Shown here: one piece after another, positions 4,904 through 10,185 of the stretch
How the letters are laid out: the number at the start of each line of letters is the position of its first letter
How positions within the stretch are numbered: position 1 is the stretch's first letter
Assembly: GCA_050015435.1 (NCBI GenBank)
Contig: JBEKBK010000001.1
Coordinates: 15,249-79,248 of the forward strand
DNA: 64,000 nt
From: Bryobacteraceae bacterium
GTDB lineage: Bacteria; Acidobacteriota; Terriglobia; Bryobacterales; Bryobacteraceae
Direction: 5' to 3'
Program-made: the position numbers and the translations under genes
Notes under the pieces: model-generated
What the model saw: the letters and a program-made list of their open reading frames with translations, nothing else
What the model was told of the DNA's origin: nothing
Databases searched by the model: none

Positions 4904-5380
4904 ATGGATCCAGATCCGTTGGTTATTCGAAAAGGGACGGCCGGCGACAGCGCGGCCATCGCCCGGATTCAGGCTGCTTCGCCAGAGTCTGCTCACTGGA
5001 ATCCCGAGAGCTACCTTGGATACGATTGCCTGGTCGCGATCGCACAATCAGAGGTCGTAGCGTTCCTGGTGTCGCGCGAATTACTACCCGGAGAGCGGGA
5101 GATTCTGAACCTCGCGGTGATTCCGTCCTACAGGCGGCGCGGGATCGCCAGTAGGCTGCTCAAAGAAGAACTGGATCGTTCCAGCGAAACTTGGTTTCTG
5201 GAGGTTAGGGAATCCAATTTGGCCGCTCTCAACCTGTACAAACAAATGGGGTTTACGCCCGTCGGCCGACGCGAGCAGTATTACCAGGACCCCTCTGACG
5301 CAGCTATTGTCATGAGGATTGTTTCATGCTATCGTCATGATGCGCAGTCGGCCGTCGGTGACCGGCTGCCAGGAGAGTAA
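4904..5380 (+). CDS. rimI: GNAT N-acetyltransferase, RimI-like (ribosomal-protein-alanine acetyltransferase)
   Basis: 158 aa. Acetyl-CoA binding block NLAVIPSYRRRGIASRLL and LEVRESNLAALNLYKQMGF. Confidence 0.7.
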   Translation: MDPDPLVIRKGTAGDSAAIARIQAASPESAHWNPESYLGYDCLVAIAQSEVVAFLVSRELLPGEREILNLAVIPSYRRRGIASRLLKEELDRSSETWFLEVRESNLAALNLYKQMGFTPVGRREQYYQDPSDAAIVMRIVSCYRHDAQSAVGDRLPGE

Positions 5381-5452
5381 TACCCACCGGGCCAGAAGGA
5401 TCGAAATTAACAGACTCGGCGTGGCACTTCAACTACGAAGGAGACCCGTTCG

Positions 5453-5689
5453 ATGGAGATGAATCCGCTAGAAGAATTGAAAGCGCATCTGATGGCGACC
5501 AGCGAAGAATTTCGCGAATTGGCTGCTCAGCACCTCCGGTACCACAAGCTGCTGGAAGAGCTGGAAGCGAAACCCCATCTATCCGACCAGGAACAGGTGG
5601 AAGAAGTTCGCCTTAAGAAACAGAAGCTGCGCCTGAAGGACCAGATGAACTCGATTCTGGCTCAATACAAGGCACAGCACGTCGCCTAG
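5453..5689 (+). CDS. Small coiled-coil protein, DUF465/YdcH-like
   Basis: 78 aa, heptad-rich (HLRYHKLLEELEAKPHLSDQEQVEEVRLKKQKLRLKDQM). Followed by a strong terminator. Confidence 0.7.
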   Translation: MEMNPLEELKAHLMATSEEFRELAAQHLRYHKLLEELEAKPHLSDQEQVEEVRLKKQKLRLKDQMNSILAQYKAQHVA

Positions 5690-5727
5690 CCGTTAGGTGC
5701 GCGTAGTAGAAATCAGAAGTGAGTAAG

Positions 5728-5757
5728 AAGCCGGGCCCCAAACGGGGTCCGGCTTTT
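5728..5757 (+). terminator. Rho-independent terminator after the DUF465 gene
   Basis: 10-bp GC-rich stem GCCGGGCCCC / GGGGTCCGGC (one G-U pair), AAAC loop, then TTTT. Confidence 0.75.
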
Positions 5758-5781
5758 ATGTTTTAAGGTGGTCTCAGGCAG

Positions 5782-5787
5782 TATAAT
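5782..5787 (+). promoter_or_regulatory. Candidate -10 box (TATAAT) for recA
   Basis: A perfect TATAAT lies 47 nt upstream of the recA ATG at 5834. No convincing -35 or SOS box was recognised. Confidence 0.35.
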
Positions 5788-5833
5788 AAGATCTTCCACC
5801 GGGCAAAAAACCTGCAAGAAGAAGGAACCCACC

Positions 5834-6901
5834 ATGGACGAGAAAGAACGTAGCCGAGCCCTTGGCGCAACTCTGGGCCAGATCGAAAAACAATTCGGAA
5901 AGGGCTCCGTCATCCGCCTGGGAGCTCAGGCGGTGGTAGCCGTTCCGGCCATCTCCACCGGCTCGATCTCGGTCGATTACGCGCTCGGCGTGGGCGGATT
6001 TCCACGGGGCCGCATCTCGGAAATTTTCGGGCCGGAATCCTCGGGGAAAACGACGGTCGCGCTGCAGGTGGTCGCGGAAGCTCAAAAGGTGGGCGGCATG
6101 GCGGCGTACATCGACGTCGAGCACGCGCTCGATCCCGCATACGCGCGCAAGCTGGGCGTCGACGTCGACAATCTGCTGGTCTCCCAACCCGACTACGGCG
6201 AGCAGGCGCTCGAGATCACCAACGCATTGATCACGTCCGGATCGATCGACGTGCTGGTAGTAGATTCGGTGGCCGCGCTGGTTCCCAAAGCCGAGCTGGA
6301 TGGTGAGATGGGCGACAGCTTCATGGGCGTGCACGCACGCCTGATGTCGCAGGCCATGCGCAAGCTCACCGGGATCGTGTCGAAGTCGAATACCTGCCTG
6401 ATTTTCATCAACCAGATTCGTGAAAAGATTGGCGTGATGTTCGGCAACCCGGAAACCACCACTGGGGGCCGCGCGCTGAAGTTTTACTCGAGCGTTCGAG
6501 CCGACATCCGCCGCATCGCCGCGATCAAGGACGGCGAAACGGTGACTGGCAATCGCACCAAGATCAAGATCGTGAAGAACAAGATGGCTCCGCCGTTCCG
6601 CGAGGCCGAATTCGACATTATTTACGGTGAGGGGATTTCAAAGGAAGGCGATCTGGTGGACTTGGGCGTGGCGCAAAATTTGGTGGAGAAGAGTGGAGCC
6701 TGGTACAGCTACAAAGGCGAACGAATCGGACAGGGACGCGAGAATGCGAAGCAGTTTCTAAAAGACAATCCCGATATCCGGAAGAAGCTCGACATAGATT
6801 TGCGGAAACTGCTGAACCTGGTGCGGACAGAGGCAGCACCCGCCGCGCCAGTGCCGGTGGCAGTAGCGCCCGCCGCAGCAGCTTCTCGCTCGCGCGCTTA
6901 G
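5834..6901 (+). CDS. recA: Recombinase RecA
   Basis: [27 protein letters not shown]-terminus, Walker [10 protein letters not shown], conserved L1/L2 regions. The ATG at 5834 is preferred over the 5768 extension. Confidence 0.97.
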
Positions 6902-7302
6902 CTCATGCTATGTTCCGTCGCAAACCCGACCTGATAGACGGCGTCGCCCCGTTCGGCTCGAATCGGCGCGACCAAAGACTTGCGATGAGGACCCTCGGGT
7001 AAGGCCTGTACCAAAGGGTAAGGCCAGTCGATGAGCGGGTGTTTGGGTACAATCATCGTAGGGAACGAATGCTAGTTCACTGGAGGCTGTCCAAGATAGC
7101 CGTACGGCGTCCGACGTAAGGGTGGTTGACGGCTGCGTTCCCCGGAGGAATTGGCTTGCGCGGACCCGTATCGTGCGGAATAGGAGTCCTGGGTCCGTTA
7201 AGTTGCTCGATCGGCTCCGAAGTCCGAACACGCTGCAATGCTCGCCAATTACGAAAGGGCGAGACGAAGACGGAATACACGACGCAGGCTTACTGAATCT
7301 CC
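6902..7302. other. 400-nt non-coding tract with multiple stem-loops (unassigned; candidate structured RNA or decayed remnant)
   Basis: No credible ORF in any frame. Hairpins lie at 7008-7050, 7098-7134, 7161-7197 and 7241-7263. No match by eye to tRNA, tmRNA or RNase P conserved blocks. Confidence 0.3.
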
Positions 7303-8112
7303 ATGAGGTGCGAAGAATTAAAGGCGTCAGTGCTTCGATGGATTGATAAGGAAATTGAGTGTCGACCTAGCGCTAACGACTGTCTAACAGCCACTCTCCC
7401 GATCCTCAAGCCCAACGGCGACGCTATCGAGATTGGCATTGAGCCAGCGGGTGCTGGCCGCTGGAAACTCTCCGATCTCGGTGAAACCTACGCCACCCTG
7501 TATCTGGCCGGCGTGGATTTATTCGAGGAGTATGTTCGCGCCGCTGAGTTCAAGCAAATAATATCCTCCCATCGAATCACCAATAATGAGGATCAGCAAG
7601 AGTTGATGGTTGAAACGTCCTCAGGTGAACTTGTGGGGGTGATGTTTGATTTCGTGCACGCCATTCAGTCCATGTTGGCGTTGCAATTGACGGTTCAGCC
7701 AAGGCATCCGAAGCGTGACTTCGCCAGTGTGGTCGCTAAGTTTCTTGCCGAACAGCACGCGTCCTTCGAAGTTCCTGCCGAGTACGTCAACGGCAGGACG
7801 GGTAAGTGGAGGTTCAATTTCATTTTGAACCACGTGAGTGAAGAAACACTCGTGAAGGCTCTGACGGCGAGGAATAAAAACGAGGCGCTTCGCTCTGCCG
7901 AGCAGAGCGTCTTTGAAATTGGCGACGTGCGTGGATTGAGAAAGGTGCAGGCCGTTGTTATCGCGGACGATGAGGACGGCCGGCAGGCGTTTTGGCAACC
8001 TCAGGTGATGAAGGTTTTCGATGGGTACAACGTTCCGGTCTATCCGTTTGTAGGAAATCGGCAAGAGCTTATGCAGTTCGCGAGCCGATACGCAGTCCCC
8101 AGCAAGAGCTAG
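7303..8112 (+). CDS. DUF1828/DUF1829-like two-domain protein (function unknown)
   Basis: 269 aa with AT-richer codon usage. The N-terminal half pattern (NGDAIEIGIEP..GRWKLSDLGETYATL) and C-terminal half pattern (VNGRTGKWRFNFIL) match my recollection of these Pfam DUFs. Confidence 0.65.
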   Translation: MRCEELKASVLRWIDKEIECRPSANDCLTATLPILKPNGDAIEIGIEPAGAGRWKLSDLGETYATLYLAGVDLFEEYVRAAEFKQIISSHRITNNEDQQELMVETSSGELVGVMFDFVHAIQSMLALQLTVQPRHPKRDFASVVAKFLAEQHASFEVPAEYVNGRTGKWRFNFILNHVSEETLVKALTARNKNEALRSAEQSVFEIGDVRGLRKVQAVVIADDEDGRQAFWQPQVMKVFDGYNVPVYPFVGNRQELMQFASRYAVPSKS

Positions 8113-8572
8113 GGGAACATAAACGTCTGATAGTCGGACCTCAGTTCGATGTTCTCCTCTTTGAGAAAATCCAACAGTGCTTGATTAGGGTCGTCTTCAG
8201 TGATCGGAGGATCCGGTTTGTAGGCGTACCTGTCGATCCTTGATGAGGAGAACATGTGTTTGTGCGGTCCTCGAATTTTCCCACTTTCTCCCGGATTCTT
8301 ATGCACCTCGGCCATGTCGTAGCTTCGGACGCAATGGCCCATATACTTGAGAGAGAATCCCCAACGCGTGCGGTTATGCCTTCCTACCTTCTTCCAATAT
8401 CCAGATAGATCGAGCCCTTCGCAGTGAGGACGGTCGCTTGGAAGATGAAGACACCCTCGCCATTTCCCGGCTTCCACGCGATTCGAGAAGCTACGTGCTT
8501 CGGGACGAAATGCAGCTGTTCAGACAGTTCGTAAGTGAACTCGCCAGAGGCCATGAGCCAAGTTGGCTCCAT
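8109..8572 (-). pseudogene. DUF6978-like protein split by a frameshift (ORFs 8572-8384 and 8477-8109)
   Basis: The first frame ends ..SIYLDIGRR-stop. The sequence continues sensibly in another frame: KVGRHNRTRWGF..VHKNPGESGKIRGPHKHMF..ALLDFLKEENI. Its stop shares a CTAG with the convergent gene. Confidence 0.5.
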
Positions 8573-8619
8573 CCTATCGCATTAGGTGAGCCGAAAATTC
8601 TGATTGTCTGTTAAACAGC

Positions 8620-10185
8620 TCATTTTTCAACCAAAAAATTCCCAACAAACAGCGCGTCGATTCCGGACGAGTAGAAGCTCCGGACCGCATCGCGCGGCGT
8701 CGAGACCAGAGGGTCGCCGAACAGGTTGAAGCTGGTGTTGTACAGCACTGGTAAACCCGTGGCCTTGCCGGCCTCATTCAACAAATGGTGATACAGCGGA
8801 TTGTCGGCCTCGCTTACCGTATGCACCCGGACCATGTCATGGCCGAGGATGGCCGTCTCGAAGGTCTTGCGGTACGCATGCCGCACACGCCCTACCGTGG
8901 CGAGATGACGCGCGTTCGGTCCCACTTCGAAGAACTCACTCGCCAGTTCCACCGGAACCGACGCCGCGAATTTGCGGAACGGCTCGCGATGCTTGATGAA
9001 GACGTTCAGATTTTCGGTCGAGTACGGATCCAAAGGCGACGCCAGAATGCTGCGGTTGCCCAACGCACGCGGGCCGAACTCCATTCGCCCGTGCATCCAC
9101 GCGACGATCTTGTGTTCGCCCAACATCCGCACCGCCGTGGTCAACAGATCGTCAGTGGAGCGCAGATACTGAAAACGCAGCTTGCAGTTTTCGAGCACCT
9201 GTTTAATTTGCTCGGGGCCATAGCTGGGACCCAACAACAGCGAACCGGAACCCGAATGGCGGGCATGTTTCCGTACGTGATGCCAGACATAATCCACCGC
9301 GCCAAGAGCCGTGCCGGCATTGCCTGCGGCAGCCTGGACGAATACGTTCTTCCACCTGCCACTGCGCTCCAGGAACTCGACCAGCAGGGCGTTATAGAAG
9401 AGACCGCCAGCGAGGCAAAGGTTTTCGCCCTGGCCCACCAGCGTCAACACAGTGTCTTCGATGGTCTTTTGCAGGCCGCGCGCCACCGAAGGCGCCAAGG
9501 AGGCCGGAATTTTCGCGCCATCCGCGAGCCCGAGGCACGCGAATAACTTCGCGCTGAATCCTCCGCCCGAAAGGCGATGGCCATCGAAGAACGACGAATC
9601 GATCCGCGCGTCTTCGGACAACACTTCCCGGAACAGTCCCGCGAAACGATCATCGCCCGACGCGGAGAGCCACTGCACTTTGTGTTCATCCGCGCCCGCT
9701 CGGAAGCCGAGCAGTTCCGTAACCGCGCCGTAGAAGCGGCCGAGCGAGTCCGGATAATACCAGGACTTCTCTGCCTGCAGCTCATTGCCGCGACCGTTCC
9801 AACGCGCTCCGCAGCAGAAATCGCCAGCGTTGTCGAGCGTCAATACAGTCGCGTGCTCGAAAGGCGAAGCATAAAATGCTGATGCCGCGTGAGCAAGGTG
9901 ATGCTCAACCACCACAACCTCGCTGTTCGGAAACTGGGCGCGCAAGGCGATATGGAACTCGGCTTCCGGTCCGCGCGCGAACGGGCGTACAATCGCGACG
10001 CAATCCACCTGATCCGGCGTCGCGCCGGCGAGCCGAAGGCATTCGTCAATCGACGCGCGCGGCACTGCGTCAGGCGACAGCGCTCGCGTCAGTTTCGATT
10101 CCTCGACTGCGGATTTGATTTCGCCATCCTTCAAGACGGCGCAAGCCGGATCGCGGAGCAGACCACCCAGGCCGAGAATCACCAT
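8620..10185 (-). CDS. Carbamoyltransferase, NodU/CmcH/TobZ family
   Basis: 521 aa. N-terminal ILGLGG..DPACAVLKDGEI..AVEESKLTR (ASKHA/Kae1-like) and C-terminal YNTSFNLFGDPLV block. Confidence 0.9.
   Translation of the reverse strand: MVILGLGGLLRDPACAVLKDGEIKSAVEESKLTRALSPDAVPRASIDECLRLAGATPDQVDCVAIVRPFARGPEAEFHIALRAQFPNSEVVVVEHHLAHAASAFYASPFEHATVLTLDNAGDFCCGARWNGRGNELQAEKSWYYPDSLGRFYGAVTELLGFRAGADEHKVQWLSASGDDRFAGLFREVLSEDARIDSSFFDGHRLSGGGFSAKLFACLGLADGAKIPASLAPSVARGLQKTIEDTVLTLVGQGENLCLAGGLFYNALLVEFLERSGRWKNVFVQAAAGNAGTALGAVDYVWHHVRKHARHSGSGSLLLGPSYGPEQIKQVLENCKLRFQYLRSTDDLLTTAVRMLGEHKIVAWMHGRMEFGPRALGNRSILASPLDPYSTENLNVFIKHREPFRKFAASVPVELASEFFEVGPNARHLATVGRVRHAYRKTFETAILGHDMVRVHTVSEADNPLYHHLLNEAGKATGLPVLYNTSFNLFGDPLVSTPRDAVRSFYSSGIDALFVGNFLVEK

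Follow-up and report, generated by a model that had tools for sequence, protein, structure and literature searches.

Probable relic of an IS1595-family transporter insertion sequence, with a two-gene cargo, between recA and a carbamoyltransferase gene in an Acidobacteriota genome

The DNA analysed here (the window) is a stretch of 64,000 nucleotides from the Bryobacteraceae bacterium assembly GCA_050015435.1 (contig JBEKBK010000001.1, positions 15,249 to 79,248 of the forward strand), and the subject is a small islet between recA and a NodU/CmcH-type carbamoyltransferase gene. These two genes are convergent, and 1.7 kb separates the stop codon of recA (6901) from that of the carbamoyltransferase gene (8620-8622, minus strand). 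The islet in between holds an intact gene of the DUF1828/DUF1829 type, here called B, a DUF6978 pseudogene, here called A, which is convergent with B, and, on the recA side, a fragment of a transposase gene (Table 1). Together these features very probably represent an immobile relic of an IS1595-family transporter insertion sequence (IS), rather than an element as such; the term transporter denotes IS that carry passenger genes (Siguier, Gagnevin & Chandler 2009, cited in PMC3129680).

Table 1. Features of the islet and its margins, in window coordinates
Feature	Coordinates	Strand	Description
recA-side spacer	6902..7002	none	Probably the remainder of the native recA-carbamoyltransferase spacer, presumably holding the left deletion junction
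Transposase remnant	7003..7149	+	C-terminus (residues ~257-313 of ~320) of an IS1595-family DDE transposase, with one in-frame stop
Transposase-to-B spacer	7150..7302	+	About 130-150 bp, against 137-220 bp in intact elements
Gene B, intact	7303..8112	+	269 amino acids; N-terminal DUF1828, C-terminal DUF1829-like; PADLOC PDC-M24B
Gene A, pseudogene	8109..8554	-	DUF6978; PADLOC PDC-M24A; frame changes at about 8414-8420
A upstream region and degraded right inverted repeat	8555..8612	-	Inner part CTCACCTAATGCGATA conserved

The base composition of the islet sets it apart from its surroundings. An earlier note on this DNA had gained the impression, without calculation, that the two genes are richer in AT than their neighbours, and the computed values agree: the GC content of the islet is 53.2%, compared with a mean of 58.7% (standard deviation 1.8%) for 1.6-kb sliding segments across the 64 kb, and the 12 segments lowest in GC all lie around the islet, which is itself the lowest. 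Genome-wide it ranks at the 1.4th percentile (z = -2.5), and GC content at third codon positions is 0.63 in B and 0.60 in A versus 0.69-0.74 in recA, the carbamoyltransferase gene, glnS and gltX. Most of the DNA between recA and B (6902-7302) is accounted for by transposase debris at 7003-7149 and the usual transposase-to-B spacer; family scans of 6902-7002 gave no protein or RNA match, and neither Rfam (E up to 1) nor tRNA scans gave a match in 6900-8700. A promoter and terminator scan returned one promoter-like site, equal to what shuffled sequences gave, and zero terminators, and its result was not used.

Gene B encodes a protein that exceeds the Pfam cut-off for DUF1828 (41.5 bits, cut-off 22) and falls below that for DUF1829 (16.2 bits, cut-off 22.2); four of its homologues carry a precomputed PF08862 match. 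It matches PHROG 5059 (E 6e-20) and the PADLOC profile PDLC04539 for PDC-M24B (E 9.9e-22, profile positions 4-246 of 255), aligns over its full length with 33 homologues and keeps every invariant residue. A dN/dS ratio of roughly 0.07 relative to the homologue in related locus L036 indicates long-term purifying selection. The AlphaFold model of B has two domains (pLDDT 91), and its best PDB matches in Foldseek are Bax1, the R2 restriction-like endonuclease domain, BstEII, AF1548, XisH and Can2, so that the C-terminal domain bears a weak predicted resemblance to the PD-(D/E)xK, or restriction-endonuclease-like, nuclease fold. In the alignment D208, D222 and D223 are invariant, and E150, K185 and E205 nearly so. 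Ninety-five relatives of B share 46-79% identity with it and are nearly all metagenomic, those in named genome records coming without exception from Acidobacteriota metagenome-assembled genomes. A profile search was needed to find relatives in contig collections: single-protein scans of the genome-contig and viral-contig collections gave no match, and the plasmid and phage collections yielded only haloarchaeal DUF1828 proteins of 25% identity, with no useful context.

Gene A is spread over two open reading frames on the minus strand, 8109..8477 and, in another frame, 8384..8572, as three-frame translation reveals. Searches with intact homologues (tblastn) place residues 1-47 at 8554-8414 and residues 48-149 at 8420-8115, and the start, previously put near 8619, belongs at 8554, where the protein begins with MASGEF as its homologues do. 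The C-terminal part matches Pfam DUF6978 at 32.7 bits (cut-off 29.6) over model positions 57-133, the last 77 of 133. Of the families to which the earlier note assigned the two proteins, DUF1828 and DUF6978 are therefore upheld by Pfam models above cut-off, and DUF1829 is not. The PADLOC profile PDLC04533 for PDC-M24A is matched by the 122-residue C-terminal reading frame (E 6e-6), by the joined reading (E 2.6e-7) and by all 21 intact A homologues, which are 147-151 residues long and run in a single uninterrupted frame. For neither A nor B did a PDB sequence search give a match or NCBIfam hold a family.

The HxNP..G..HxH-type motif remarked upon earlier is present in A as VHKNPGESGKIRGPHKH, which is the most conserved part of the family. 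Across 32 distant members of 23-58% identity, K19, W27, H99, K100, F131 and E134 do not vary, and R79, H101 and Y113 are close to invariant, a pattern that fits a catalytic or ligand site centred on PHKH. Modelled from the intact copy in locus L023, A is predicted to be nearly all beta (pLDDT 83), and its one match in a viral fold library is a siphovirus protein that is itself uncharacterised (TM 0.66). The family is small, with 201 cluster representatives among 1.84 billion, and its members are about 140-180 residues long.

Comparison with homologues places the lesion in A: all 21 intact homologues read VLTxDGxGLDLSGYW where the window has VLTAKG in one frame and LDLSGYW in the other, which looks like a loss of about 7 nt. 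Programmed frameshifting was set aside, as there is no slippery motif, the homologues are all single-frame and the change resembles a 7-nt loss. Both halves of A are free of stops, with pN of 0.12-0.23 and saturated pS, that is, under old purifying selection, which implies that the frameshift is recent. The same frameshift is found in a separately assembled metagenome contig, L035, which is identical to window positions 6681-8679, including the truncation of the transposase gene.

L035 (JGI contig Ga0181530_10068821) departs from the window in the adjoining part of recA, with 25 differing sites in the 212 bp of 6469-6680, most of them separated by multiples of three, and a single 1-nt gap where the end of the contig is ragged. 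The switch at 6680/6681 may mark a recombination breakpoint in recA, with the islet passed between strains by homologous recombination, or a chimeric contig.

Both proteins match the profiles of PDC-M24, and their genes stand side by side with overlapping stop codons, but A is frameshifted. The matches support the possibility of an anti-phage pair, the candidate itself being a prediction: the PDC systems are 145 'guilt-by-embedding' candidates, put forward because their genes occur within BREX, DISARM or type I restriction loci (Payne et al., bioRxiv 10.1101/2024.01.29.577857). A functioning anti-phage or abortive-infection pair, with the frameshift an assembly error, would be in keeping with the PDC-M24 matches, with the stop-free, formerly selected parts of A on either side of a single frame change, and with the state of the assembly, a draft in 780 contigs with 7% contamination. 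It is nonetheless improbable, because the separate metagenome contig, identical over 2 kb, has the same frame change, the difference from the 21 intact homologues is a loss of about 7 nt and not a homopolymer miscount, A is independently broken in loci L036 and L039, and anti-phage activity of PDC-M24 is itself only predicted. The module in this genome is most likely non-functional.

The convergent arrangement of the pair, with stop codons sharing CTAG at 8109-8112, had been described correctly, and it is general: A follows B, in convergent orientation, in 30 of 30 loci with downstream sequence, so the two genes do co-occur. Their 3′ ends overlap by 4-28 nt in 26 of the 30, most commonly in a 4-nt YTAR (13 loci). 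Since the 3′ ends overlap, the convergent transcripts must overlap too, which may couple the expression of B and A. Two element types instead carry an extra 257-316 bp between the ends of B and A (L034:5793-6049 and L049-L051, e.g. L051:5799-6114). The fates of the two genes are unequal. A is broken beside a full-length B in the window, in L036 (a 130-bp internal deletion) and in L039 (where it is in pieces), with L047 a possible fourth case; an intact A beside a broken B was found in none of the loci compared. That A is repeatedly broken while B stays intact hints that A is the costly partner.

Upstream of B, the translated window matches the transposases of loci L023, L027 and L051 at 7003-7149 (tblastn, 46-49% identity over 49-57 residues; E = 1.6e-5 against the whole window), and the match includes the terminal L(M/T)AAFPGG. 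Nothing of the catalytic domain survives, and the position and strand of the remnant relative to B are those of the transposase gene in intact elements. The statement that no recombinase was present is hence not quite right, and neither the idea of free-standing cargo without a mobility gene nor that of an intact pair holds: this is a relic of an IS1595-family transporter IS, its transposase gene cut to about 50 codons and A frameshifted, as both are in a second assembly. A transposase profile of our own found no further remnant in 6850-7008; a weak 'RGPxGKA' match in the same interval was dropped as chance.

DNA similarity to intact elements (L040, L027, L058) runs from 7303 to 8590. At the right end only the inner 16 nt of the inverted repeat (CTCACCTAATGCGATA) are recognizable, by alignment by eye with the right ends of intact elements; searches of the window for known repeat sequences found none within 5 mismatches in 18 and no left repeat. 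From the distance of the repeat in intact elements, the outer right end would be expected at about 8608-8612, leaving 8-11 bp to the stop codon of the carbamoyltransferase gene. The left end, which would be needed to read a target duplication, is deleted.

What the islet once looked like can be read from its relatives. A survey fetched 44 related loci, 27 of which were distinct and assessable for an adjacent transposase, and an IS1595-family transposase adjoins B in 18 of these 27; the first three long contigs inspected each have B closely following such a transposase on the same strand. The transposase of L023 matches Pfam DDE_Tnp_IS1595 (E 1.7e-40) and the Zn-ribbon model (E 2.1e-13). Intact elements are 2.4-2.8 kb in size and are ordered left inverted repeat, transposase (Zn-ribbon plus DDE_Tnp_IS1595), B, A on the opposite strand, right inverted repeat. 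Perfect inverted repeats of 18-26 bp are present in L023, L027, L030, L034, L039, L040, L049-51, L055, L057 and L059; the left one lies 25-50 bp ahead of the transposase gene and the right one 49-58 bp past the A start. Repeats of one type open with GGTAAnTAT, which we take to resemble the ends of the ISNwi1 subgroup. Nine separate insertions are flanked by 8-bp target duplications (CTTGATTG, TAACTATT, ATTCCGGA, AACGTTAT, CATCCCTC, TTGTTTAG, TTAGCAAT, CTTGATCG and CAATGATG). The shared inverted repeats and the 8-bp duplications mean that transposase, B and A move as one unit of 2.4-2.8 kb; in the relatives, the B/A pair is the passenger load of IS1595-family transporter IS.

In one related locus (L024/L029; ENA contig_19939) A is followed downstream by a gene of the AIPR (abortive-infection) family and by a second IS1595 transposase in inverted orientation (L024 positions 5368-7044 and 7270-8238), an arrangement that resembles a compound transposon.

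Such regular association raises the question whether B and A are cargo at all or rather transposition accessory proteins, with B, for example, making the second-strand cut in the manner of TnsA in Tn7. In favour are the identical placement and order of the pair in two transposase clades that share only 33-37% identity, and the restriction-endonuclease-like fold that B weakly matches. Against it, a transposase is missing beside the pair in 9 of the 27 loci; perfect repeats enclose quite different cargo in at least four further IS1595 elements of this genome; and the identities of transposase and B are uncoupled (Pearson 0.30), as in L029 versus L055 (transposase 35%, B 70%) and L030 versus L057 (transposase 74%, B 41%). 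Moreover, a variant in L059 (486-3030) is ordered repeat, B, A (reverse), transposase (reverse), repeat, with the duplication CAATGATG, so that the pair lies on the other side of an inverted transposase, and in L039, where A is already disrupted, the ends are still perfect and a target duplication is present. An accessory role is accordingly very unlikely. The uncoupled identities, the transposase-free loci and the other cargo on IS1595 copies argue instead for a cassette that is independent of the transposase.

The synteny of recA in related genomes speaks to how the pair arrived. In seven genomes of the same genus (G016, G018, G010, G006, G021, G022 and G008) recA stands directly beside the carbamoyltransferase gene, with a spacer of 28 to about 330 bp. 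Three others hold different genes in the interval: a HicA toxin gene (Pfam E 1.9e-18) and a gene for a 317-residue protein in G014 (locus L013), DUF4166 and DoxX_3 genes in G024 (L014), and 5.9 kb with an alpha-amylase, a DUF5131 protein and an MFS transporter in G005 (L015). The B/A pair is at the recA site in none of 40 relatives, a weak B-like DNA match in G025 is on another contig, and a close B occurs in 1 of 401 sampled genomes of the phylum, which is this genome itself. The absence of the pair from the site in relatives, and the different cargo in three of them, mark the pair as acquired and the interval as variable; almost certainly, then, it is not core, and the interval, flanked by convergent core genes, acts like a hotspot for insertions. 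Horizontal acquisition, as proposed in the earlier note, accordingly agrees with the low GC, the empty site in seven congeners and the other cargo in three. The converse, that the pair is ancestral and was lost from the relatives, has only its position between conserved genes in its favour; the low GC of the islet, the transposase remnant, the occurrence of related pairs inside elements with target duplications, and the lack of the pair in 40 relatives, seven of which have recA and the carbamoyltransferase gene tightly joined, leave it a negligible probability, and synteny and element structure have already refuted it.

The explanation that best fits the whole, and which we consider likely, is that the islet is the relic of an IS1595 transporter IS whose cargo, B and A, was a putative conflict module. 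The window copy shows the course of decay: an IS1595 element inserted into the short stretch that separates recA from the convergent carbamoyltransferase gene, a deletion then took the left repeat and about 260 transposase codons, and a later indel frameshifted A and left only B intact. That the pair is a self-contained conflict module, toxin-antitoxin-like or abortive-infection-like, is quite possible, and we advance it tentatively from the sequences. Still more tentative is the assignment of A as the toxic partner. Under this proposal A, a small all-beta protein with a conserved R...HxNPxG...PHKH site, would be the effector or costly partner, and B, with its DUF1828 and nuclease-like DUF1829 domains, would probably sense or restrain A and be harmless alone.

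Several observations weigh against this interpretation. The transposase remnant amounts to 49-57 residues and reaches only E 0.002 with our own profile, and the outer right repeat and the left junction of the window copy are placed by inference only. PDC-M24 is a prediction, one of 145 candidates; a literature search found no paper naming it, that on DUF6978 and DUF1828 turned up list mentions only, and the transposase-free loci are not obviously in defence islands. The fold search of the PDB found no structural relative of A (best E 0.17), and in the family survey A was never fused to a known domain. The nuclease-fold matches of B are weak (E 1e-3 to 1e-1, TM 0.2-0.34), and the canonical D...(D/E)xK triad is not identifiable in the alignment of 33 homologues.

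A related possibility is that the pair is an addiction module that serves the IS by killing cells that lose it, with no benefit against phage, its embedding in restriction and BREX loci reflecting insertion preference. In its favour, active elements enclose the pair between their inverted repeats, an IS1595 element of this genome also carries another PADLOC candidate (PDC-S33), and PDC candidates were chosen solely for embedding in known systems. Yet the pair persists without a transposase in a third of the loci. Sequence data cannot separate addiction from the favoured explanation, toxin-antitoxin modules often doing both; as an account in its own right we think it unlikely. Slightly less unlikely, and still doubtful, is a broader proposal, namely that a DUF6978/DUF1828-DUF1829 cassette is traded among IS1595 IS, with A a PHKH toxin of new fold, B its keeper of nuclease fold, and control exerted by the overlapping convergent transcripts. 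If this were true, part of the embedding signal for PDC-M24 and PDC-S33 would reflect the landing sites of transporter IS and not anti-phage function.

Comparison with known systems helps to delimit the conflict-module relic proposed here. With IS1595 transporter IS the intact relatives share a single Zn-ribbon and DDE_Tnp_IS1595 transposase, short inverted repeats, an 8-bp duplication and passenger genes inside the repeats, whereas the window copy lacks the left repeat, retains a degraded right one and is down to about 50 codons of transposase; distinctive is a cargo pair that is common to two distant transposase clades and also occurs free of a transposase. With PDC-M24 the islet shares the two-gene cassette and matches to both component profiles (for B over 243 of 255 positions). 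It differs in that PDC-M24 was predicted from BREX, DISARM and type I restriction loci and here lies in an IS relic between housekeeping genes with A a pseudogene, and in belonging to an acidobacterial clade far removed from the PADLOC models, against which A reaches just 24-31 bits.

The validated defence system DS-6/HipAD has a non-kinase partner, DS-6B, that contains DUF1829 and is proposed to bind toxin and DNA like an antitoxin (DefensePredictor; PMC13092281). By analogy B, which carries a DUF1829-like domain, appears to behave like the harmless partner. However, DS-6B pairs DUF1829 with DUF3037 and not with DUF1828, the toxin of that system is a HipA-type kinase and not DUF6978, and the DUF1829 match of B lies below the Pfam cut-off. 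As in type II toxin-antitoxin systems, a small mobile two-gene cassette repeatedly loses one gene, A, while the other, B, survives; unlike these, the genes are convergent with overlapping 3′ ends and do not form an operon, and neither belongs to a known toxin or antitoxin family.

For this genome the consequences are small, the islet being a dead relic, for which we suggest the annotation 'IS1595-family tIS remnant; PDC-M24B-like gene; PDC-M24A-like pseudogene'. What is new is that the PDC-M24 candidate pair is standard cargo of two IS1595 clades in Acidobacteriota. Intact units are now identified (e.g. the L023, L027 and L034 types), together with a testable polarity in which A would be the costly and B the safe partner. 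The case also advises caution with 'guilt-by-embedding', as the cargo of IS can enter restriction and BREX loci for reasons unrelated to defence.

Elsewhere in the window, upstream of recA, positions 5453-5689 encode a conserved protein of 78 residues with 64-65% identity in three congeners and a weak match to NCBIfam PRK11415; a CRISPR-DR25-like Rfam match inside it (E 0.076, single copy) is probably due to chance. Elsewhere in this genome (G000), a 2.4-kb IS1595 element at C278:7651-10086, with a 14-bp exact match between its inverted ends, carries a gene for a 376-residue RelA_SpoT-domain protein that matches PADLOC PDC-S33 at E 1.7e-104. Three further IS1595 elements, at C278:589-4193, C397:2666-6154 and C13:27104-31419, have perfect inverted repeats of 20-29 bp and 2.5-3.4 kb of other cargo. 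Among the products encoded there are DUF3800-like and DUF2513 proteins, a 357-residue protein whose RNHVMH motif is HEPN-like, and a coiled-coil plus membrane protein.

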